In this document: positions 546 through 61,809 of the stretch, in pieces
Position numbering within the stretch: position 1 is the first letter of the stretch
Layout: every line of letters starts with the position of its first letter
Assembly (NCBI RefSeq): GCF_003334335.1
Contig: NZ_QOWQ01000013.1
DNA: 64,000 bases
Direction: 5' to 3' (one strand)
From: Escherichia coli
Lineage (GTDB): Bacteria > Pseudomonadota > Gammaproteobacteria > Enterobacterales > Enterobacteriaceae
Program-made: the position numbers and the translations under genes
Notes under the pieces: generated by a model
Databases searched by the model: none
Seen by the model: the letters and a program-made list of their open reading frames with translations, nothing else
What the model was told of the DNA's origin: nothing

Positions 546-1259
546 ATGAATGTTAATTACCTGAATGATTCAGATCTGGATTTTCTTCAGCATTGTAGTG
601 AGGAACAGTTGGCAAATTTCGCCCGATTGCTCACCCATAATGAAAAAGGCAAAACTCGCCTCTCCAGCGTACTGATGCGCAACGAACTGTTTAAATCGAT
701 GGAAGGGCATCCCGAGCAACATCGCCGCAACTGGCAGCTGATTGCCGGAGAATTACAGCATTTTGGTGGCGATAGTATCGCCAACAAACTGCGCGGACAC
801 GGTAAATTGTATCGGGCCATTTTGCTCGATGTTTCAAAGCGATTGAAGCTGAAAGCCGACAAAGAGATGTCTACGTTTGAAATTGAGCAACAGTTACTGG
901 AACAATTTCTGCGTAATACCTGGAAGAAAATGGACGAGGAACATAAGCAGGAGTTTCTGCACGCGGTCGATGCCAGGGTGAATGAGCTGGAAGAGCTGCT
1001 GCCGCTGCTGATGAAAGACAAATTATTGGCAAAAGGTGTGTCGCATTTGCTTTCCAGCCAACTGACCCGCATTTTACGCACCCACGCAGCAATGAGCGTA
1101 CTTGGGCATGGTTTGCTGCGCGGCGCGGGGCTGGGAGGCCCTGTAGGTGCTGCACTAAATGGGGTTAAAGCGGTCAGCGGCAGCGCCTATCGCGTGACGA
1201 TTCCAGCCGTACTGCAAATCGCCTGCCTGCGCCGGATGGTTAGCGCCACTCAGGTCTGA
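546..1259 (+). CDS. yaaW: YaaW, UPF0174 family protein
   Basis: 237-aa ORF; recognised sequence and synteny. Confidence 0.85.
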   Translation: MNVNYLNDSDLDFLQHCSEEQLANFARLLTHNEKGKTRLSSVLMRNELFKSMEGHPEQHRRNWQLIAGELQHFGGDSIANKLRGHGKLYRAILLDVSKRLKLKADKEMSTFEIEQQLLEQFLRNTWKKMDEEHKQEFLHAVDARVNELEELLPLLMKDKLLAKGVSHLLSSQLTRILRTHAAMSVLGHGLLRGAGLGGPVGAALNGVKAVSGSAYRVTIPAVLQIACLRRMVSATQV

Positions 1260-1407
1260 TACCGGAAACCGGGGAAAATTTTCATTTTCCCCTCAAAAGA
1301 TCGTAGACACTGCCCCACTGGCTGATTATTATGCCGCGCCCTGAAAACACTACAGTTATTCAGGGAAATTATTTCACCATTCATTCGATGATGATTTTTG
1401 AGGAATT

Positions 1408-1974
1408 ATGGGCAACACTAAGTTGGCTAATCCGGCACCGCTGGGCCTGATGGGCTTCGGCATGACCACCATTCTGCTTAACCTGCACAACGTGGGTTAT
1501 TTCGCTCTGGACGGTATTATTCTTGCCATGGGCATTTTCTACGGCGGCATCGCGCAAATTTTTGCTGGTCTGCTGGAGTACAAAAAAGGCAACACTTTCG
1601 GTTTAACCGCATTCACCTCTTACGGTTCTTTCTGGCTGACGCTGGTTGCGATTCTGCTGATGCCGAAACTGGGTCTGACCGATGCGCCAAATGCACAGTT
1701 CCTTGGTGTCTACCTGGGTCTGTGGGGCGTATTTACGCTGTTTATGTTCTTCGGCACGCTGAAAGGCGCACGCGTTCTGCAATTCGTTTTCTTTAGCCTG
1801 ACCGTGCTGTTTGCCCTGCTGGCGATCGGTAACATTGCCGGTAACGCCGCAATCATCCACTTTGCCGGCTGGATTGGGCTGATCTGCGGTGCCAGCGCAA
1901 TCTATCTGGCGATGGGTGAAGTACTGAACGAGCAGTTTGGTCGCACCGTTCTGCCGATTGGTGAATCCCACTAA
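1408..1974 (+). CDS. satP: succinate-acetate/proton symporter SatP (GPR1/FUN34/YaaH family)
   Basis: 188-aa highly hydrophobic ORF with YaaH-family sequence; synteny. Confidence 0.9.
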   Translation: MGNTKLANPAPLGLMGFGMTTILLNLHNVGYFALDGIILAMGIFYGGIAQIFAGLLEYKKGNTFGLTAFTSYGSFWLTLVAILLMPKLGLTDAPNAQFLGVYLGLWGVFTLFMFFGTLKGARVLQFVFFSLTVLFALLAIGNIAGNAAIIHFAGWIGLICGASAIYLAMGEVLNEQFGRTVLPIGESH

Positions 1975-1985
1975 TTGTTTTGAGA

Positions 1986-2012
1986 TCCCCCCGCTCGGGG
2001 GGATTTTTTTAT
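1986..2012. terminator. bidirectional rho-independent terminator between convergent satP and mog
   Basis: cccccc-gctc-gggggg hairpin followed by T-run (gggggattttttt). Confidence 0.6.
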
Positions 2013-2596
2013 TCGCTAACGTCGCGTCTTGCACTCTTCGGTCTGAATGCTGCAACCACTTCCGGTGCCGTTTCAACGTATGGCCCTTCCAGCAACTGAA
2101 TGCAGTACGGTACGCTGGCAAAAATACCGTGTACCACAACGTTACCCTCAGCGTCCTTCACACCTTCCAGCGTCTCTTTAATAGACTTCGGCTGACCGGG
2201 TAAGTTAAGGATCAGCGCCTGTTTGCGAATCACGCCCACCTGACGCGAAAGGATCGCAGTTGGTACAAAATGCAGGCTGATCTGGCGCATCTGTTCACCA
2301 AAGCCAGGCATCTCGCGGTCCGCTACTGCCAGCGTCGCATCGGGCGTTACGTCACGACGCGCCGGGCCAGTTCCGCCCGTGGTGAGCACCAGATGGCAAC
2401 TCATTTCATCCACCAGCTCACACAACGTTTGCTCGATGATCGCCTGCTCATCGGGGATTAAGCGGGTTTCCAGTTCAAACGGCGTGGTTAGCGCCGATGT
2501 CAGCCATTCTTCCAGCGCAGGGATGCCTTTATCCTGATAAACGCCGCTGGATGCGCGATCAGAGATGGAAACTAAGCCAATACGTAAAGTATTCAT
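2009..2596 (-). CDS. mog: molybdopterin adenylyltransferase Mog
   Basis: ORF product MNTLRIGLVSISDRASSGVY...; second ATG taken as start (195 aa). Confidence 0.9.
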   Translation of the reverse strand: MNTLRIGLVSISDRASSGVYQDKGIPALEEWLTSALTTPFELETRLIPDEQAIIEQTLCELVDEMSCHLVLTTGGTGPARRDVTPDATLAVADREMPGFGEQMRQISLHFVPTAILSRQVGVIRKQALILNLPGQPKSIKETLEGVKDAEGNVVVHGIFASVPYCIQLLEGPYVETAPEVVAAFRPKSARRDVSE

Positions 2597-2710
2597 CAAG
2601 ATTTTTCCGTTTAAACAGTCTCGTTAAACAGAATGATACACTGCGAAGGGAGTGACAGACAGGCTTCAGAAGAGGTAGCGTGACCGACTTCCCGGTCACG
2701 CTAAGAATGA

Positions 2711-3664
2711 TTACAGCAGATCGCCGATCATTTTTTCCAGTTTTTCCTGGTCAATAGCAAACTTACGGATACCTTCCGCCAGTTTATCTACTGCCATTGG
2801 ATCCTGGTTGTGCTGCCACAGGAACTCGGACTCAGTGATACGCGCCGGACGCGCTTTCACTTCGCCGGTGTAAGACAGTTTACGTTCGATAGCCCCTTCG
2901 CTCTCCGCCAGCTCTTTCAGCAGTGCCGGTGCGATGGTCAGACGGTCGCAGCCTGCCAGTTCCAGAATTTCGCCGATGTTACGGAAGCTTGCGCCCATAA
3001 CCACGGTTTCATAACCGTGCTCTTTGTAGTACTGGTAGATTTCAGATACAGAAACCACGCCCGGATCTTCTGCCGGAGCGTACTCTTTCTTATCGGTATT
3101 CGCTTTGTACCAGTCAAGAATACGGCCAACAAACGGCGAGATCAGGAACACGCCCGCTTCCGCACAAGCACGAGCCTGAGCGAAGGAGAACAGCAGGGTC
3201 AGGTTACAGTTGATGCCTTCTTTTTCCAGCTGTTCTGCAGCACGGATACCCTGCCAGGTAGAAGCCAGTTTGATCAGAATACGATCGTTGCTAATACCAG
3301 CATCGTTGTAGAGTTTGATCAGGCGTTTTGCTTTCGCAATTGACGCTTCGGTGTCATAGGAAAGACGCGCATCAACTTCAGTTGAGATACGGCCCGGAAC
3401 CAGTTTCAGGATTTCCAGACCAATATTTACTGCCAGTTTGTCGGTCGCGTCCACGATCTGCTGCGCGCGATCGTTGCTCTGCTGTTTCGCCCAGGCGACA
3501 GCATCATCAATCAACTTACGGTATTCCGGAATCTGCGCTGCGTTAAGAATGAGAGAAGGGTTGGTTGTGGCATCCTGCGGTTGATACAGCTTCATTGCCG
3601 CGATGTCCCCAGTGTCGGCCACTACGGTGGTGTACTGACGAAGGGAGGTCAATTTGTCCGTCAT
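2711..3664 (-). CDS. talB: transaldolase B
   Basis: ORF 2711..3727 trimmed to [40 protein letters not shown] (317 aa). Confidence 0.95.
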
Positions 3665-3942: not shown

Positions 3943-5373
3943 ATGCCAGATTTTTTCTCCTTTATTAACAGCGTCCTTTGGGGATCGGTAATGATTTACC
4001 TGCTCTTCGGCGCAGGTTGTTGGTTCACTTTTCGCACCGGATTTGTGCAGTTTCGCTACATCCGCCAGTTTGGCAAAAGTCTTAAAAATAGCATTCATCC
4101 ACAGCCAGGCGGTTTAACCTCATTTCAGTCATTGTGTACCAGTCTTGCGGCGCGCGTGGGTAGCGGCAACCTGGCCGGCGTTGCGCTGGCTATTACCGCC
4201 GGTGGACCAGGTGCCGTCTTCTGGATGTGGGTTGCCGCGTTTATCGGCATGGCGACCTCGTTTGCCGAATGTTCCCTTGCACAACTTTATAAAGAACGTG
4301 ACGTCAATGGGCAGTTTCGTGGCGGACCGGCATGGTATATGGCGCGCGGGCTGGGGATGCGCTGGATGGGCGTTCTGTTCGCCGTCTTTTTGCTCATCGC
4401 CTACGGCATAATTTTCAGCGGAGTTCAGGCAAACGCTGTTGCCCGAGCCCTGAGTTTTTCTTTTGATTTTCCCCCGCTGGTGACAGGCATTATTCTCGCT
4501 GTCTTTACTCTGCTGGCAATCACTCGCGGTCTTCATGGCGTCGCCCGGCTCATGCAGGGGTTTGTCCCGTTGATGGCGATAATCTGGGTACTGACCAGCC
4601 TGGTGATTTGCGTAATGAATATCGGGCAACTTCCCCACGTCATTTGGTCTATTTTTGAGAGTGCTTTTGGCTGGCAGGAAGCGGCAGGCGGCGCGGCGGG
4701 ATATACCTTAAGCCAGGCGATTACTAACGGTTTTCAGCGCAGTATGTTTTCCAATGAGGCGGGAATGGGTTCGACGCCAAACGCGGCAGCGGCAGCTGCG
4801 TCCTGGCCTCCGCATCCGGCAGCACAAGGGATTGTCCAGATGATTGGCATTTTTATCGACACCCTGGTCATCTGTACGGCAAGCGCCATGCTGATATTAC
4901 TGGCGGGTAACGGCACAACCTACATGCCGCTGGAAGGTATTCAGCTTATCCAGAAGGCGATGCGGGTGCTAATGGGTTCCTGGGGTGCTGAATTTGTTAC
5001 CCTCGTGGTTATTATGTTTGCCTTCAGCTCCATCGTTGCCAACTACATTTATGCCGAAAACAATCTCTTCTTTTTACGCCTGAACAACCCTAAAGCGATC
5101 TGGTGTTTGCGGATCTGCACCTTCGCAACGGTCATCGGTGGCACCTTGCTAAGTCTTCCGCTGATGTGGCAACTGGCAGATATCATAATGGCCTGCATGG
5201 CTATTACCAATTTGACCGCCATTTTACTGCTCTCGCCTGTGGTTCATACCATTGCCAGTGATTATCTACGCCAGCGTAAACTCGGCGTGCGCCCGGTGTT
5301 TGATCCGTTGCGTTATCCGGATATCGGTCGCCAGCTTTCTCGGGACGCGTGGGATGATGTTTCGCAGGAGTAA
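3943..5373 (+). CDS. yaaJ: alanine/glycine:cation symporter family transporter YaaJ
   Basis: 476-aa polytopic membrane ORF; synteny. Confidence 0.9.
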   Translation: MPDFFSFINSVLWGSVMIYLLFGAGCWFTFRTGFVQFRYIRQFGKSLKNSIHPQPGGLTSFQSLCTSLAARVGSGNLAGVALAITAGGPGAVFWMWVAAFIGMATSFAECSLAQLYKERDVNGQFRGGPAWYMARGLGMRWMGVLFAVFLLIAYGIIFSGVQANAVARALSFSFDFPPLVTGIILAVFTLLAITRGLHGVARLMQGFVPLMAIIWVLTSLVICVMNIGQLPHVIWSIFESAFGWQEAAGGAAGYTLSQAITNGFQRSMFSNEAGMGSTPNAAAAAASWPPHPAAQGIVQMIGIFIDTLVICTASAMLILLAGNGTTYMPLEGIQLIQKAMRVLMGSWGAEFVTLVVIMFAFSSIVANYIYAENNLFFLRLNNPKAIWCLRICTFATVIGGTLLSLPLMWQLADIIMACMAITNLTAILLLSPVVHTIASDYLRQRKLGVRPVFDPLRYPDIGRQLSRDAWDDVSQE

Positions 5374-5442
5374 TCACAACTATCGATCAACTCATTCTCT
5401 TTTTTTGCTAAAGTCGGCATAAATTTCCTGCAAGGACTGGAT

Positions 5443-6219
5443 ATGCTGATTCTTATTTCACCTGCGAAAACGCTTGATTACCAAAGCCCGTTGACCACCA
5501 CGCGATATACACTGCCGGAGCTGTTAGACAATTCCCAGCAGTTGATCCATGAAGCGCGGAAACTGACGCCTCCGCAGATTAGCACGCTGATGCGCATCAG
5601 CGACAAACTGGCGGGTATCAACGCCGCTCGCTTTCATGACTGGCAGCCAAATTTCACGCCGGAGAATGCCCGCCAGGCGATTCTGGCGTTTAAAGGTGAT
5701 GTCTACACCGGCTTGCAGGCCGAAACCTTCAGCGAAGACGATTTCGATTTTGCCCAACAGCATTTGCGAATGCTTTCCGGCTTGTATGGCGTACTGCGCC
5801 CGCTCGATTTAATGCAGCCTTATCGTCTGGAAATGGGGATCCGTCTTGAGAATGCCCGAGGGAAAGATCTGTATCAATTCTGGGGAGATATCATCACCAA
5901 CAAGCTGAACGAGGCGCTCGCAGCACAAGGCGATAATGTGGTGATTAATCTGGCGTCAGATGAGTATTTTAAATCGGTGAAGCCGAAGAAATTGAATGCC
6001 GAGATTATCAAGCCGGTGTTCCTCGATGAGAAGAACGGCAAATTTAAGATCATCAGCTTCTACGCTAAGAAAGCACGCGGTCTGATGAGTCGTTTCATTA
6101 TTGAAAATCGGCTGACCAAACCAGAGCAACTGACTGGTTTTAATAGCGAAGGTTACTTCTTTGATGAAGCTTCCTCCAGCCATGGCGAACTGGTGTTTAA
6201 ACGCTACGAGCAGCGTTAA
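5443..6219 (+). CDS. yaaA: peroxide stress protein YaaA (UPF0246)
   Basis: 258-aa [20 protein letters not shown]...; synteny. Confidence 0.9.
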
Positions 6220-6223
6220 GTTT

Positions 6224-6365
6224 GTAGTCAATGTCGGATGCGGCGTGAACACCTTATCCGGCCTACAAAAGCATGCAGATTCAATATATTGCAGAATTCA
6301 CGTAGGCCTGATAAGACGCGCCAGCGTCGCATCAGGCGCTGAATGCCGGACTGTTACCCGGCATT
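6224..6365. repeat. REP/BIME palindromic repeat cluster
   Basis: cggatgcggcgtgaac...cttatccggcctaca and taggcctgataagacgcg...cgcatcaggc REP motifs. Confidence 0.6.
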
Positions 6366-6371
6366 TGTTAT

Positions 6372-6671
6372 TTAGCGGTGATGTTTGCCTGGACCATTAC
6401 CGCCGTGATGATCATGATGAGCTTTCTTATGGTGACGCGGCGGCGGTGGCGGCGGTCCGTGTGGGTGCCAGCGATTGCCTCGCCATTCATAATGTTGTTT
6501 CCACCAGCCGTGGTCGCGCCAGTGACCGCCATCCCAGTAATAACCGCGATTATCACGATCGCCTATCTGTAATTTTACTGACGGGACTAACGTAATTTCC
6601 GCAGCCTGCGCTGCCATGGGAGCGACCAGAACCAGGGAAAGTGCGAGTACGATAGATTGCATCTTTTTCAC
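6372..6671 (-). CDS. yaaX: YaaX (DUF2502), secreted His/Pro-rich protein
   Basis: 99-aa ORF with N-terminal signal peptide and C-terminal [17 protein letters not shown] tract. Confidence 0.85.
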
Positions 6672-6828
6672 AGGTTACTCCTTTTATCATTGCCCGTTAT
6701 GGGTCGATATCCGGAGATTACGCGATGAGAACGGCAGTTGTTATTCTCCGCAATCCTAATCTCTAAGTTACCGCATTTATTGAGAATTTCTCCTTTTTCC
6801 CTGTCGTTTCTCTCCATATTTTCTTCAC

Positions 6829-12613: not shown

Positions 12614-12957
12614 ATTGCCACTCTTCTTGACCAAATGACCGCGAACAGGGTGATCACTGTCAACTTATTACGCGGTGCGAATTTACAAATCCTTAACGTA
12701 AGTCGCAGAAAAAGCCCTTTACTTAGCTTAAAAAAGGCTAAACTATTTCCTGACTGTACTAACGGTTGAATTGTTAAAAAATGCTACATATCCTTCTGTT
12801 TACTTAGGATAATTTTATAAAAAATAAATCTCGACAATTGGATTCACCACGTTTATTAGTTGTATGATGCAACTAGTTGGATTATTAAAATAATGTGACG
12901 AAAGCTAGCATTTAGATACGATGATTTCATCAAACTGTTAACGTGCTACAATTGAAC

Positions 12958-12971
12958 TTGATATATGTCAA
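12958..12971. promoter_or_regulatory. FNR-like half-palindrome in arcA upstream regulatory region
   Basis: TTGATATATGTCAA resembles TTGAT-N4-ATCAA; lies in AT-rich region upstream of arcA. Confidence 0.3.
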
Positions 12972-13012
12972 CGAAGCGTAGTTTTATTGGGTGTCCGGCC
13001 CCTCTTAGCCTG

Positions 13013-13153
13013 TTATGTTGCTGTTAAAATGGTTAGGATGACAGCCGTTTTTGACACTGTCGGGTCCTGAGGGAAAGTACCCACGACCAAGCTAATGATG
13101 TTGTTGACGTTGATGGAAAGTGCATCAAGAACGCAATTACGTACTTTAGTCAT
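13013..13153 (-). CDS. yjjY: small protein YjjY (46 aa)
   Basis: hand-translated minus-strand ORF MTKVRNCVLDALSINVNNIISLVVGTFPQDPTVSKTAVILTILTAT; below ORF-track size cutoff. Confidence 0.6.
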   Translation of the reverse strand: MTKVRNCVLDALSINVNNIISLVVGTFPQDPTVSKTAVILTILTAT

Positions 13154-13248
13154 GTTACGCCGATCATGTTAATTTGCAGCATGCATCAGGCAGGTCAGGG
13201 ACTTTTGTACTTCCTGTTTCGATTTAGTTGGCAATTTAGGTAGCAAAC

Positions 13249-13965
13249 ATGCAGACCCCGCACATTCTTATCGTTGAAGACGAGTTGGTAACACGCAACA
13301 CGTTGAAAAGTATTTTCGAAGCGGAAGGCTATGATGTTTTCGAAGCGACAGATGGCGCGGAAATGCATCAGATCCTCTCTGAATATGACATCAACCTGGT
13401 GATCATGGATATCAATCTGCCGGGTAAGAACGGTCTTCTGTTAGCGCGTGAACTGCGCGAGCAGGCGAATGTTGCGTTGATGTTCCTGACTGGCCGTGAC
13501 AACGAAGTCGATAAAATTCTCGGCCTCGAAATCGGTGCAGATGACTACATCACCAAACCGTTCAACCCGCGTGAACTGACGATTCGTGCACGCAACCTGC
13601 TGTCCCGTACCATGAATCTGGGTACTGTCAGCGAAGAACGTCGTAGCGTTGAAAGCTACAAGTTCAATGGTTGGGAACTGGACATCAACAGCCGTTCGTT
13701 GATCGGCCCTGATGGCGAGCAGTACAAGCTGCCGCGCAGCGAGTTCCGCGCCATGCTTCACTTCTGTGAAAACCCAGGCAAAATTCAGTCTCGTGCTGAA
13801 CTGCTGAAGAAAATGACCGGCCGTGAGCTGAAACCGCACGACCGTACTGTAGACGTGACGATCCGCCGTATTCGTAAACATTTCGAATCTACGCCGGATA
13901 CGCCGGAAATCATCGCCACCATTCACGGTGAAGGTTATCGCTTCTGCGGTGATCTGGAAGATTAA
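13249..13965 (+). CDS. arcA: aerobic respiration control response regulator ArcA
   Basis: 238-aa [33 protein letters not shown]...; OmpR-family receiver plus winged helix. Confidence 0.97.
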
Positions 13966-44912: not shown

Positions 44913-45944
44913 ATGTCTGCATTTACCCCGGCAAGTGAAGTCTTGCTGCGTCACAGTGATGATTTCGAACAAAGCCGTATTCTGTTTGCCGGAGACTTAC
45001 AGGATGACCTGCCCGCGCGTTTAGATACCGCGGCCAGCCGTGCTCATACCCAGCAATTTCACCACTGGCAGGTGTTAAGCCGCCAGATGGGGGATAACGC
45101 CCGTTTTAGTCTGGTCGCCACGGCGGATGACGTCGCAGATTGCGATACGCTGATTTACTACTGGCCGAAGAACAAACCGGAAGCCCAGTTCCAGTTGATG
45201 AATTTACTTTCTCTGCTGCCGGTGGGCACTGATATTTTTGTCGTTGGCGAGAACCGCAGCGGCGTGCGCAGCGCCGAGCAGATGCTGGCTGATTATGCGC
45301 CGTTGAATAAAGTCGACAGCGCCCGTCGCTGTGGCCTCTATTTTGGTCGTCTGGAAAAACAGCCGGTATTTGATGCCGATAAATTCTGGGGCGAATACAG
45401 CGTCGATGGCCTGACGGTCAAAACGCTGCCTGGCGTGTTTAGCCGCGACGGTCTGGATGTCGGTAGCCAGTTGCTACTCTCGACGTTAACCCCGCACACG
45501 AAAGGTAAAGTGCTGGATGTCGGCTGTGGCGCGGGTGTGCTTTCAGTTGCCTTTGCGCGCCATTCACCGAAAATTCGTCTCACCTTGTGCGATGTCTCTG
45601 CCCCGGCGGTAGAAGCCAGCCGTGCGACGCTTGCGGCCAACGGTGTTGAAGGTGAAGTCTTTGCCAGCAACGTCTTTTCCGAGGTGAAAGGTCGTTTTGA
45701 TATGATCATCTCCAACCCGCCGTTCCACGATGGGATGCAAACCAGCCTGGATGCGGCGCAAACGCTGATTCGCGGCGCGGTGCGTCATCTTAATAGCGGC
45801 GGCGAGCTGCGAATTGTAGCGAACGCCTTCCTGCCTTATCCGGACGTGCTGGATGAGACATTTGGCTTCCACGAAGTGATCGCGCAAACAGGGCGCTTCA
45901 AGGTGTATCGCGCCATTATGACCCGCCAGGCGAAGAAAGGTTAA
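44913..45944 (+). CDS. rsmC: 16S rRNA (guanine1207-N2)-methyltransferase RsmC
   Basis: 343-aa [41 protein letters not shown]; SAM-binding [12 protein letters not shown]. Confidence 0.95.
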
Positions 45945-45959
45945 TTATCTCGCCGAATA

Positions 45960-46135
<176 letters not shown>

Positions 46136-46175
46136 ACATTTTTCCAGCAATTACACCTCCGGCGATAATTAACTA

Positions 46176-46203
46176 TTGACGAAAAGCTGAAAACCACTAG
46201 AAT
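46176..46203 (+). promoter_or_regulatory. tRNA-Leu promoter (sigma70)
   Basis: TTGACG -35 and TAGAAT -10 with 16-bp spacer followed by GC-rich discriminator gcgcctcc, about 40 bp upstream of the tRNA. Confidence 0.6.
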
Positions 46204-46244
46204 GCGCCTCCGTGGTAGCAATTCTTTTTAAGAATTGATGGTAT

Positions 46245-46331
46245 GCGAAGGTGGCGGAATTGGTAGACGCGCTAGCTTCAGGTGTTAGTGTCCTTACGGA
46301 CGTGGGGGTTCAAGTCCCCCCCCTCGCACCA
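46245..46331 (+). tRNA. leuQ: tRNA-Leu (anticodon CAG)
   Basis: 87-nt GCGAAGGTGGCGGAATTGGTAGACGCGCTAGCTTCAGGTG...CCTCGCACCA; long variable arm; genomically encoded CCA; single copy. Confidence 0.95.
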
Positions 46332-46369
46332 ATTATCTTTACTTCCTTTCTTGTTTCTTCCCTGTTTTG

Positions 46370-46606
46370 TCATCCCTGATTCAAATTCATTAGCATCAGC
46401 ATGATGCCAGCACTAAGCGTCAGGCACGATGGTAGCAAAACGTAATGCCGTAACTGTTTGTGATACAGCATCACCGGCGTCAATACTAATCCCATAAGAA
46501 TGACAATCCGCCATTGATCCGGCGATAAATCCGCATACATCAGCCCTGCAATCAGCAATCCTGGCAGCAACACTCCCCAGCCACTGCCCAGCGTACGTTG
46601 CAACAT
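46370..46606 (-). CDS. yjjZ: small membrane protein YjjZ
   Basis: ORF 46370..46717 trimmed to internal Met giving MLQRTLGSGWGVLLPGLLIAGLMYADLSPDQW (78 aa). Confidence 0.7.
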   Translation of the reverse strand: MLQRTLGSGWGVLLPGLLIAGLMYADLSPDQWRIVILMGLVLTPVMLYHKQLRHYVLLPSCLTLSAGIMLMLMNLNQG

Positions 46607-46623
46607 GGTTTCATCTCTTTCAT

Positions 46624-46733
46624 TGATAATGATAACCAATATCATATGATAATTTTTATCATTTGCAAGCCAGAGAAATCCCTTGCTATCGGATAAACCT
46701 ATCGCTAGGATTAGCAATCATTATCATTTAGAT
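46624..46733. promoter_or_regulatory. Fur boxes in the divergent yjjZ-fhuF promoter region
   Basis: TGATAATGATAACCAATATCATATGATAATTTTTATCATT and GATTAGCAATCATTATCATTTAGAT match the GATAATGATAATCATTATC consensus. Confidence 0.55.
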
Positions 46734-46746
46734 TACTATCCCGATT

Positions 46747-47535
46747 ATGGCCTATCGTTCCGCACCGCTCTATGAAGATGTTATCTGGCGAACGCATCTC
46801 CAGCCACAGGATGCTGGGCTTGCACAAGCCGTACGTGCGACGATCGCCAAACATCGTGAACATTTGCTCGAGTTTATCCGCCTGGATGAACCCGCTCCGC
46901 TTAACGCCATGACGCTGGCGCAATGGTCATCACCGAATGCGCTAAGTTCTCTACTCGCGGTCTATTCCGATCATATCTATCGCAACCAACCAACGATGAT
47001 CCGCGAGAACAAACCGCTGATCTCACTATGGGCACAATGGTATATCGGCCTGATGGTGCCACCATTAATGCTGGCGCTACTGACGCAGGAAAAGGCATTA
47101 GATGTGTCGCCGGAACATTTCCACGTTGAGTTTCACGAAACCGGCCGTGCCGCCTGTTTCTGGGTCGATGTGTGTGAAGATAAAAACGCAACACCACATT
47201 CGCCGCAGCAGCGAATGGAAACGTTAATCAGCCAGGCGCTGGTTCCGGTTGTGCAGGCACTAGAAGCGACCGGAGAGATCAACGGCAAACTTATCTGGAG
47301 TAATACCGGTTATTTGATCAACTGGTATCTCACTGAGATGAAGCAACTGCTCGGCGAGGCGACGGTTGAATCGCTGCGCCATGCCCTCTTTTTTGAGAAA
47401 ACGCTCACGAACGGTGAAGATAATCCACTCTGGCGTACCGTGGTACTGCGCGACGGCCTGCTGGTGCGCCGCACTTGCTGCCAGCGTTATCGCTTACCGG
47501 ATGTGCAGCAATGTGGCGATTGTACGCTGAAATGA
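46747..47535 (+). CDS. fhuF: ferric-siderophore reductase FhuF (2Fe-2S)
   Basis: 262-aa ORF ending in C-C-x10-C-x2-C cluster motif (RRTCCQRYRLPDVQQCGDC). Confidence 0.95.
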   Translation: MAYRSAPLYEDVIWRTHLQPQDAGLAQAVRATIAKHREHLLEFIRLDEPAPLNAMTLAQWSSPNALSSLLAVYSDHIYRNQPTMIRENKPLISLWAQWYIGLMVPPLMLALLTQEKALDVSPEHFHVEFHETGRAACFWVDVCEDKNATPHSPQQRMETLISQALVPVVQALEATGEINGKLIWSNTGYLINWYLTEMKQLLGEATVESLRHALFFEKTLTNGEDNPLWRTVVLRDGLLVRRTCCQRYRLPDVQQCGDCTLK

Positions 47536-47572
47536 AAGCACTGCCGGGGAAGTAAACCCGGCATAATGCGGA

Positions 47573-48250
47573 TTAATAGGGATGCAACACATTACTTGCT
47601 TCGCAATGCCGCATACATAACAGAATATCTGCGGCCTCCAACAACCCTGCATCAGAACTGACGCCCAGTTTCGACATCACATTAAATTTATGTGCACGGA
47701 TCGTTTTGATATTGCGTTTAAGCTGCTCGGCAATTTGTGTCATTGAGTAGCCACGCGACATAAAGCGCAATATTTCTCTCTCCGTCGGGCTTAACGTCCG
47801 GCTTTGGTTAATGTACCACTGATTGTTCAGTCGGTCGGTCGCCTGACGTACACCATTTAATGACAAAAAGAGTTCCTGATGAAAAATCTCCAGCGTTGAC
47901 GCTTTACTTAATACACCGTCCAGCGGTGATGGCGACAATGAACCAATCAGCCGAGCTTCAATATCATCATCCGCAATAACTAAACGCCGGGTACGCGGAA
48001 ACTTAATCGCCAGTTCAGTCAGGCAAGATAATCCCTCTCTGCGCTCACTTCTCATGGCAGAAAAAGAAAAAATAACCGCCGCAAATGAGATCCGCGACAT
48101 GGCATCCTGAAATGACTCCTGACTGGTATAGGTATGGAGCTTATAAGGGTTACCCGCAAACTTTCTGAATAAACTCTCAATACCGATACTGCTCATGACG
48201 CATTTTTCTATGAGTGCGACATTTCTCTTCTTAATTCGGCTGTGTTCCAT
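47573..48250 (-). CDS. bglJ: LuxR-family transcriptional regulator BglJ
   Basis: 225-aa ORF with C-terminal LuxR HTH ([25 protein letters not shown]). Confidence 0.9.
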
Positions 48251-48933
48251 TCTGCGGCATCTCCATAAACAGAAGGCAAGTTAAGTTCTCTTGCACCCTG
48301 CGCGCTATTTATCCATGCATACATTTCAGCGTTGCTGTGAATTGCCAGTCGACGCATCGCACTGTTTTTTTGGGCGCTGATAGTTTTATTACTTTTCTTA
48401 AGCAACGAAGCTATCTGGTTGATGCCCCATCCTTTACCTAATAGCCGCAGTACCTTGCGCTCTGAAAGAGTGAGAATGACGGAGCGATAGCTAAAATCAT
48501 GAGTTTCAGTCATTGCCGGAGAGGTCAGCATGGCGCTGATACGCTCTGCGTGCGTATTGCCGGAACGTACGGTCTTGACCAGATTCTCAATGGGTTCAAC
48601 ATCAGACAATAACGTCGCCGTAGGGCACATGAGCAATTCTACTGCCTGGGAATACCAGGAGCGTGACACCATGAAAACCCAGTGAATTTCCCGATATTGT
48701 GAAATTAAAGAATAATAATGCTCACAAACAGAACGTGGATCTTCACTTTCACCGGCTAAATCAGCAATGACTAATCCGGAACGACGTAATTGTAATAAGG
48801 TAAGGTCCTCCGCAGAGGCGCTGGATATTATTTCATATTCAGGGAAGTGAGTCCTCATGACCTCTTTTAACCCTGCTTGCATAACAGGTATTTTACTGAT
48901 AACAATTCCATTTTTGCAGCATCCTGGCAACAT
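48208..48933 (-). CDS. yjjQ: LuxR-family transcriptional regulator YjjQ
   Basis: 241-aa ORF with LuxR HTH ([23 protein letters not shown]); overlaps bglJ start. Confidence 0.9.
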
Positions 48934-49551
48934 ATTTCCTCCACATCCACTGTCTAAAAATCATGATGGTTTATTCAGGATATTCATTCCTTAAATGTTT
49001 CCAGCAAATTAATAGATTAAGCGAATAAATTATCCTTAGCATTCACTTTCATATCAGCATACTCCTGCTGCACAACAACTCCACTGCATGTGTCAGAAGG
49101 TTAGCATCAAATGATAACCTGGTGAAATAGCCTGGAGACATTTAAAATATCTACATTAAGTTGTTAGGAATACTTAATGAAAAACAGAAATCACATTCAT
49201 TTAATTTATAATTAAATGATATCCCTTCCCGCAGAATGAAAAATCACACAACCAATATTTATTCAATGAAATCTGATGGTTTTAACTTGTTAACATTAAA
49301 AAACGTGCCCGGTTATCTATAATCCTGATTCGTAAAGGCCAAACAATAAATTCATTATAGTGATAATATTCATGTGATAGTTTGTTTGCGGCGAGAGATA
49401 ATTCGCTTTTTATCACCGAGCTTGTCCCGATAACCAGGATTAATCAGCGCAATTTTGATCTTAACCTACCGCAAAACAACCGTGCTTCATGATACAAATG
49501 GATTCTCATTATCTGAACAATACGCAGCACGTCTATGACAAAGGGCGAGTT

Positions 49552-50786
<1,235 letters not shown>

Positions 50787-60903: not shown

Positions 60904-61809
60904 ATGGTACAAAGTATCAATCTTCTTCGAACCAGTGATACTCCTATGGCTTATAGCATCGATATCATCTCCTGCATTACCGAACGGTTTATGGCGTTAA
61001 CAGCCACTGAAAAGCGTATCGCACAATTTATTCTTGATGACGTCTCTGCCGCAGTAGAGTTGCCAATTGCTGAGCTGGCACGGTTAACGCAAACCAGTCA
61101 GGCGTCGGTGACGCGTTTTGCCCGTGCACTGGGGTGCAAAGATGTCCGCGAGTTGAAAGTCAAACTGGCGCAGTCACTGGCTGTCGGGCAGCGGTTTATT
61201 CTCGATGTACCGGATCTTGACGGTGTTCAGGGGATCTACGAAGCGATTATTAGCGTGCTGGAGACGCATCGTCGTTCGCTGGATATGAATGCCATCAGCC
61301 AGGCTGTAAGCTGGTTAAGTCAGGCGCGGCAAATTCTTGCGTTAGGAACTGGCGGCGGTTCCACTATCTGTTCACAGGAGATTCAGTACCGTTTATTCCG
61401 TCTGGGGCTACCGGTGGTCAGTCAGAATGATGCCCTGATGATGAGAATGATGTGCTCGGCAGTCATGCCGCAGGATGTGGTGATTGTGCTTTCGCTGGGC
61501 GGTTATACACCGGAAATCATCGAAAGTGCGGCAATCGCCCGTCAGTATGGCGCGCGTGTTATTGCCATTACGCCAGCACAAACACCGCTGGCGGAACAGG
61601 TGGATCTGGTATTGCCGTTACTGGTTCAGGAAAGTGATTACATCTTTAAGCCCACCCCTTCCCGCTACGCGATGTTAGCCATGGTCGATGTACTGGCAAC
61701 AGAACTGGCAATGGCAAATAAAGCGCAGGCGAAAGATCGCCTGCGGCGGATAAAACTCGTGTTAGACAGCCACCGTGGGGGCGCTAACCGCCAGCCACTT
61801 GGCGATTAG
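60904..61809 (+). CDS. RpiR/MurR-family transcriptional regulator (HTH plus SIS domain)
   Basis: 301-aa ORF with N-terminal HTH (LTATEKRIAQFILDD...IAELARLTQTSQASVTRFARALG) and SIS-like core; true start may be an internal Met. Confidence 0.8.
   Translation: MVQSINLLRTSDTPMAYSIDIISCITERFMALTATEKRIAQFILDDVSAAVELPIAELARLTQTSQASVTRFARALGCKDVRELKVKLAQSLAVGQRFILDVPDLDGVQGIYEAIISVLETHRRSLDMNAISQAVSWLSQARQILALGTGGGSTICSQEIQYRLFRLGLPVVSQNDALMMRMMCSAVMPQDVVIVLSLGGYTPEIIESAAIARQYGARVIAITPAQTPLAEQVDLVLPLLVQESDYIFKPTPSRYAMLAMVDVLATELAMANKAQAKDRLRRIKLVLDSHRGGANRQPLGD

Follow-up and report, generated by a model that had tools for sequence, protein, structure and literature searches.

The AT-rich yjjQ-bglJ operon and divergent yjjQ/yjjP control region of Escherichia coli: an H-NS-silenced locus whose composition is probably not a trace of recent import

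Our analysis of a 64,000-nucleotide stretch of Escherichia coli chromosome (hereafter, the window) indicates that positions 47573-49551 very probably correspond to the E. coli yjjQ-bglJ operon together with the divergent yjjQ/yjjP control region, an H-NS-silenced locus whose AT-richness is not the trace of a recent import. The locus itself is already known: its genes, its silencing by H-NS, its activation by LeuO, and the BglJ-RcsB and YjjQ regulons have all been published. The only mildly novel angle is that an H-NS target passed on vertically has its AT-richness maintained throughout the genera sampled. According to the ORF list and the RefSeq annotation, the gene order in this chromosome segment is rimI-holD-rsmC-tRNA-Leu-yjjZ-fhuF-bglJ-yjjQ-yjjP-yjjB-dnaT-dnaC-yjjA-opgB, and RefSeq places the start of yjjP at position 49552. 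The features of the locus are as follows:

47573..48250, minus strand: bglJ coding sequence, 225 amino acids (ORF, RefSeq, NCBIfam, and Pfam); LuxR/GerE-type activator that acts as a BglJ-RcsB heteromer (PMC3950696)
48208..48933, minus strand: yjjQ coding sequence, 241 amino acids (ORF, RefSeq, and Pfam); LuxR/GerE-type regulator and first gene of the operon
48208..48250, minus strand: 43 nt shared, in differing frames, by the end of yjjQ and the start of bglJ, read from the sequence
48934..49551, no strand assigned: yjjQ/yjjP divergent control region, 618 bp, GC 0.343; target of H-NS and LeuO according to the literature
48938..48942, minus strand: yjjQ Shine-Dalgarno sequence GGAGG, from the upstream alignment of the window and 20 related loci
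49029..49057, minus strand: predicted promoter CTGATA-17-GATAAT directed towards yjjQ, ~90 nt before its ATG, from a consensus scan; the same hexamers are given for yjjQ-bglJ in PMC3946193
49177..49205, plus strand: predicted promoter ATGAAA-17-TTTAAT facing yjjP; hexamers given for yjjP in PMC3946193, located by reading the sequence

The identity of both genes is well anchored. BglJ matches the NCBIfam equivalog NF008548 with 383.1 bits (cut-off 176) over residues 19-225, and a C-terminal helix-turn-helix of the GerE family (PF00196) was detected by Pfam in both BglJ (residues 152-203, E = 2.4e-12) and YjjQ (residues 153-206, E = 1.1e-7). In addition, both proteins are 100% identical to their K-12 counterparts (strain CJ236), and the naming of the pair as yjjQ-bglJ in the first-pass annotation was therefore correct, as was its description of overlapping genes below an upstream region of about 620 bp, the exact values being a 43-nt overlap and a 618-bp spacer. 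No Pfam match to the N-terminal phospho-receiver domain (Response_reg) was obtained in YjjQ or BglJ, and full-length alignments of YjjQ to NarL (27 bits against a cut-off of 250) and MctR (25 bits against 300) were weak and far under threshold. Judged by their domains, YjjQ and BglJ would be LuxR-type regulators rather than demonstrable classical response regulators.

The overlap between the two genes is a general property of the locus: in 71 of 71 loci, bglJ has its first in-frame ATG ahead of the yjjQ stop codon, with overlaps of 26-118 nt and a mode of 40, and translation of the two genes is probably coupled. It should be noted that the NCBIfam BglJ profile begins at residue 19 of the annotated 225-amino acid form, and that bglJ codons 1-18 (48197-48250) form an 18-residue N-terminal extension within the yjjQ overlap. 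A start at Met19, where the profile begins, was considered and discarded, and the annotated 225-amino acid BglJ was retained, because other genera conserve both the extension and the overlap. The stretch VALIEKCVM of the BglJ extension resembles the Klebsiella N-terminus VAIVEKCVM, and both reading frames appear to be constrained at these codons. On the opposite side of the spacer, a longer yjjP ORF of 277 amino acids starting at 49489 was also set aside in favor of the RefSeq start at 49552, as tblastn matches in other genera start, for the most part, at residue 1 of the 256-amino acid form that is annotated.

Regarding base composition, the GC content of 47573-49551 is 0.417 against a window mean of 0.519 (z = -3.6), a value reached by 0.03% of windows of equal size, which makes this segment essentially the GC minimum among the ~2-kb windows of the 64 kb. 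The first-pass annotation had described the two genes and the region up to yjjP as markedly more AT-rich than their neighbors, and it had named a GC content similar to that of the flanking genes as the result that would speak against this; the sliding-window calculation gave no such result. The lowest 600-bp window of the 64 kb (48865-49464, GC 0.332) corresponds to the core of the spacer. At the gene level, yjjQ (0.449) and bglJ (0.451) have the lowest GC of all genes longer than 600 bp in the window, compared with 0.534 for fhuF, 0.523 for yjjP, 0.557 for rsmC, and 0.563 for dnaT; taken singly, each lies only ~1.8 SD under the window mean. The deficit is seen at third codon positions (GC3 of 0.434 in yjjQ and 0.478 in bglJ vs. 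0.56-0.63 in neighboring genes) and also at first positions, where GC1 of the two genes is 0.47-0.48. As for the spacer, its GC of 0.343 is the fifth lowest among the 40 spacers of the window, whose pooled GC is 0.423, and it is the longest of the 40. The GC content of the spacer is thus ordinary for intergenic DNA, and it is its length that stands out.

The spacer was also described in the first-pass annotation as containing many A/T tracts suited to the binding of nucleoid proteins. The tracts are indeed present, as we counted 26 A-tracts, and since mononucleotide shuffles of the spacer yield 21.6 +/- 3.5, this number is explained by composition. The second part of the claim fared less well: nothing beyond composition was found in the tracts, in their helical phasing, or in H-NS motifs. 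AA/TT phasing at periods of 9.5-11.5 bp did not go beyond shuffled sequences (13% of dinucleotide shuffles reach the best period), and the H-NS high-affinity 10-mer TCGATAAATT, allowing up to two mismatches, gave 2 matches in the spacer, a number equalled by 15% of windows of the same size, so that no enrichment was detected. Direct or inverted repeats were not found in the spacer. An Rfam search at a permissive threshold over 45800-50000 returned no match within 47573-49551, the only matches being tRNA-Leu and REP/naRNA4 upstream. A consensus scan for promoters and terminators identified 8 promoter-like sites where 5.5 +/- 2.4 were expected, a count that is not significant. Finally, in a cross-genus alignment of the region upstream of yjjQ (the window and 20 loci), no conserved block was present besides the Shine-Dalgarno sequence and the ATG.

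Silencing of this locus by H-NS, as proposed in the first-pass annotation, has been established experimentally in the literature. H-NS represses yjjQ-bglJ transcription under standard conditions and LeuO is the sole known activator (PMC3950696), and the same repression and activation are described in PMC4264507. As cited in PMC3950696 and PMC5025477, Stratmann 2008 reported that both yjjQ-bglJ and the divergent yjjP are silenced by H-NS, with LeuO as antagonist. LeuO and BglJ-RcsB form a feedback circuit in which repression by H-NS is dominant and holds the operon OFF (PMC5025477), and in PMC3946193 a table from genomic SELEX assigns divergent promoters and an H-NS mark to the yjjP/yjjQ spacer. 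On the basis of this literature, H-NS would silence yjjQ-bglJ and repress the divergent yjjP under laboratory conditions, and the LysR-type regulator LeuO would counteract H-NS at yjjQ-bglJ; BglJ, when made, is reported to activate leuO, bgl, and other loci together with RcsB, and YjjQ is reported to repress flhDC and other loci. We propose that H-NS coats the spacer and the 5' coding DNA, both of which are AT-rich, and that the most likely reason for the persistent maintenance of low GC would be that the operon is kept under H-NS control. Since H-NS would recognize composition and not a specific site, the upstream sequence may be free to change.

Transposon and IS insertions in or near the spacer are reported to alter expression. 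The constitutive bglJC allele corresponds to a miniTn10 upstream of bglJ (PMC3950696), and studies of mouse-gut colonization describe recurrent and beneficial IS insertions in the yjjP/yjjQ spacer, with an increase in yjjP expression of ~2-fold. Natural counterparts were identified among E. coli genomes. E. coli 2014C-3011 (locus L084, about 1700-2470) carries an IS1 close to the predicted yjjQ promoter, ~105 bp ahead of the start codon of yjjQ, and in strain PS3Tanimalfeces2 (matches H12/H72) an IS1 is present, most of the spacer is gone, and no yjjQ is annotated under the match. Overall, an intact spacer match is absent in 24 of 5425 E. coli genomes.

The reading of this AT-rich segment as horizontally acquired DNA, which was also put forward in the first-pass annotation, is not supported by comparative analysis as far as a recent event is concerned. 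Of 5426 complete E. coli genomes, 5425 contain the yjjQ-bglJ locus. For comparison across genera, we used 80 species-representative Enterobacteriaceae loci anchored on YjjP, 73 of which were fully covered (Escherichia, Salmonella, Citrobacter, Enterobacter, Lelliottia, Leclercia, Klebsiella, Raoultella, Kluyvera, Kosakonia, Phytobacter, Pluralibacter, Intestinirhabdus, and others), and bglJ and yjjQ lie between fhuF and yjjP in all 73. The identity of YjjQ and BglJ to the E. coli proteins tracks that of the flanking proteins (Spearman rho 0.45-0.69), which would be consistent with co-divergence of the pair with its flanks. Mean identity to E. coli outside Escherichia is 62% for YjjQ and 51% for BglJ, compared with 86% for YjjP, 86% for YjjB, 77% for DnaT, and 72% for FhuF; on these identities, YjjQ and BglJ are evolving much faster than their neighbors. 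Direct repeats flanking the pair were not found in 46600-50400, and neither an integrase nor an IS is present in the annotation or ORF list of the window. Matches were obtained in only 17 and 34 of 72,556 plasmid records, mostly very large (0.27-5.4 Mb) and non-mobilizable; for the most part these look like mislabelled chromosome sequence, and no genuine carriage by a mobile plasmid was found. Thus, of the properties expected of a xenogeneic island, yjjQ-bglJ has the low GC and neither the patchy distribution nor the mobility signatures looked for (direct repeats, integrase or IS, an adjoining tRNA gene, and plasmid carriage), and its horizontal acquisition as a recent event is not supported.

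Several differences were observed in the neighborhood of the pair. The window carries a single tRNA-Leu(CAG) gene (46245-46331), and three tandem copies are present in K-12 (CJ236) and UTME-7; the gap between rsmC and yjjZ is 425 bp here vs. 550 bp in UTME-7 and 628 bp in CJ236, and REP/BIME-type elements are located at 45928-46105 (Rfam naRNA4, 73 bits). Escherichia has the compact form of the locus, with gaps of 43 bp (fhuF-bglJ) and 618 bp (yjjQ-yjjP). In most genera the fhuF-bglJ gap is ~2.2-2.3 kb and contains a putative 447-amino acid PTS EIIC-like ORF and a putative 152-amino acid YbaK-like ORF. The yjjQ-yjjP gap reaches ~2.6 kb in Klebsiella, Raoultella, Kluyvera, and some Citrobacter, where the additional ORFs would encode a 302-amino acid AraC-type protein and a 394-amino acid protein similar to 4-hydroxybenzoate-3-monooxygenase; all four labels were read from translations. 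In the K. pneumoniae locus L057, these stretches with extra genes are located at 873-3012 and 4641-6723, and the same gaps are present in many other loci.

The low GC of the pair is not a peculiarity of E. coli. Using flanking genes as a proxy for the composition of each genome, we found that the pair is AT-richer than its flanks in 73 of 73 loci, with a mean GC3 of 0.47 for yjjQ and 0.52 for bglJ vs. 0.62-0.69 for the flanks, and that GC3 of the pair remains ~0.15-0.2 under the flanks even in the GC-rich Klebsiella and Raoultella. The 400 bp upstream of yjjQ have a GC content of 0.25-0.44 across the species loci, and the AT-rich region remains next to yjjQ even in Klebsiella, where pobR-pobA-like genes intervene before yjjP. 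At four-fold sites of yjjQ, identity between E. coli and other genera is 14-32%, where ~0.24 is expected by chance and the counts per gene are small (34-98 sites). Because these sites are randomized and GC3 is still low, AT-richness would be a maintained property of the locus and not the signature of an import that has yet to ameliorate. This pattern points to a persistent force acting on composition, which may be selection that keeps the pair a target of H-NS, or else a local bias arising from mutation or linked to expression.

Four accounts of this composition were weighed. That the pair is recent foreign DNA in E. coli, silenced as xenogeneic and still carrying the AT-rich composition of its donor, agrees with its low GC relative to the flanks, with the known repression by H-NS, and with the presence of a tRNA-Leu gene ~1.2 kb away; such an origin is nonetheless most improbable, as the near-universal presence of the pair in E. 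coli, the conserved synteny and in-step divergence across Enterobacteriaceae species, the lack of flanking direct repeats and of any annotated or predicted integrase or IS, and the mostly large, non-mobilizable, and chromosome-like nature of the plasmid matches all speak against it, and yjjZ and fhuF separate the tRNA gene from the pair. An acquisition that preceded the divergence of the sampled genera, after which the pair stayed AT-rich, would make the xenogeneic origin real and very old. AT-richness and fast divergence (identities of 47-74% for YjjQ and 35-69% for BglJ vs. 83-91% for YjjP) do resemble those of accessory regulators, and the pair sits in a variable spot, with extra genes on either side in other genera. 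Against this, the sampled loci, all from Enterobacteriaceae, hold no positive sign of an insertion event, and with synonymous sites saturated the present composition is no leftover from a donor, so that some force maintains it whatever the origin. We regard such an ancient acquisition as unlikely, if worth keeping in view, and nothing observed here requires it.

Alternatively, GC3 could be kept low by a local bias in mutation or, in an operon that is rarely expressed, by weak selection on codons. In its full form, this explanation attributes the low GC of yjjQ and bglJ to a passive effect of their very low expression, through weak codon selection and AT-biased mutation in untranscribed, H-NS-covered DNA, without selection for H-NS binding, and treats the spacer as an ordinary, long, AT-rich divergent promoter region. 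It fits the rank of the spacer, just fifth lowest of 40, as well as the composition-expected levels of A-tracts, phasing, and H-NS motif, the OFF state of the operon under laboratory conditions, and the lack of conservation of the upstream sequence. It fits less well with the low GC1, which extends the deficit beyond third positions, with the position of yjjQ and bglJ as the lowest-GC genes longer than 600 bp in the window, or with a deficit that is found in each of the 73 lineages, scaling with the host, and we consider it rather improbable. A further reading, to which we give somewhat less than even probability, is that yjjQ-bglJ is a 'native', vertically inherited H-NS target whose coding and upstream AT-richness may be kept by selection for control by H-NS and LeuO. 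If this reading of a native target is correct, AT-richness would have outlasted a complete turnover of synonymous sites and upstream sequence, and the locus would offer a clean natural test case in which low GC at H-NS targets is adaptive and not a fading foreign mark. If AT-richness is indeed selected, the locus would also be a convenient model for composition-based regulation by H-NS.

The locus is the same as the yjjQ-bglJ operon and yjjP promoter region described in K-12 (Stratmann, Madhusudan and Schnetz 2008, J Bacteriol 190:926), with which it shares identical YjjQ and BglJ proteins, the gene order, the 618-bp spacer, and the 43-nt overlap; the differences, a spacer identity of 99.0% and one tRNA-Leu copy instead of three, are of no substance. 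It also resembles the bgl operon and leuO in having an AT-rich regulatory region, in being silent in the laboratory, in its activation by LeuO or by IS or transposon insertions, and in sharing the H-NS / LeuO / BglJ-RcsB circuit. According to the available text of PMC2646131, bgl belongs to the horizontally acquired, H-NS-repressed genes and its fate varies within E. coli; unlike bgl, so described, yjjQ-bglJ belongs to the E. coli core and keeps its synteny in each Enterobacteriaceae genus sampled. Similarly, low GC, repression by H-NS, and a dedicated counter-silencer (LeuO) are shared with H-NS-silenced islands such as the Salmonella pathogenicity islands, but yjjQ-bglJ lacks their patchy distribution, mobility genes, and insertion scars, and is inherited vertically with its flanks. 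These comparisons carry a methodological correction, namely that low GC and H-NS silencing alone do not amount to horizontal acquisition, and a first-pass reading that takes AT-richness as the mark of foreign DNA will call too many islands at loci of this kind.

Two other AT-rich sites were observed in the window. The second-lowest 600-bp GC window (12651-13250, GC 0.377) corresponds to the yjtD / yjjY / arcA regulatory region, and the studies of mouse-gut adaptation describe recurrent adaptive insertions at this site as well (arcA regulatory region; yjjY/yjtD::4 bp). The lowest gene GC of the 64 kb (0.387) belongs to a 543-bp hypothetical gene located between tsr and btsT (~60993-61535), which is preceded by the lowest-GC spacer of the 64 kb (0.303). 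On composition alone, this 543-bp gene is a better accessory or foreign candidate than yjjQ-bglJ.
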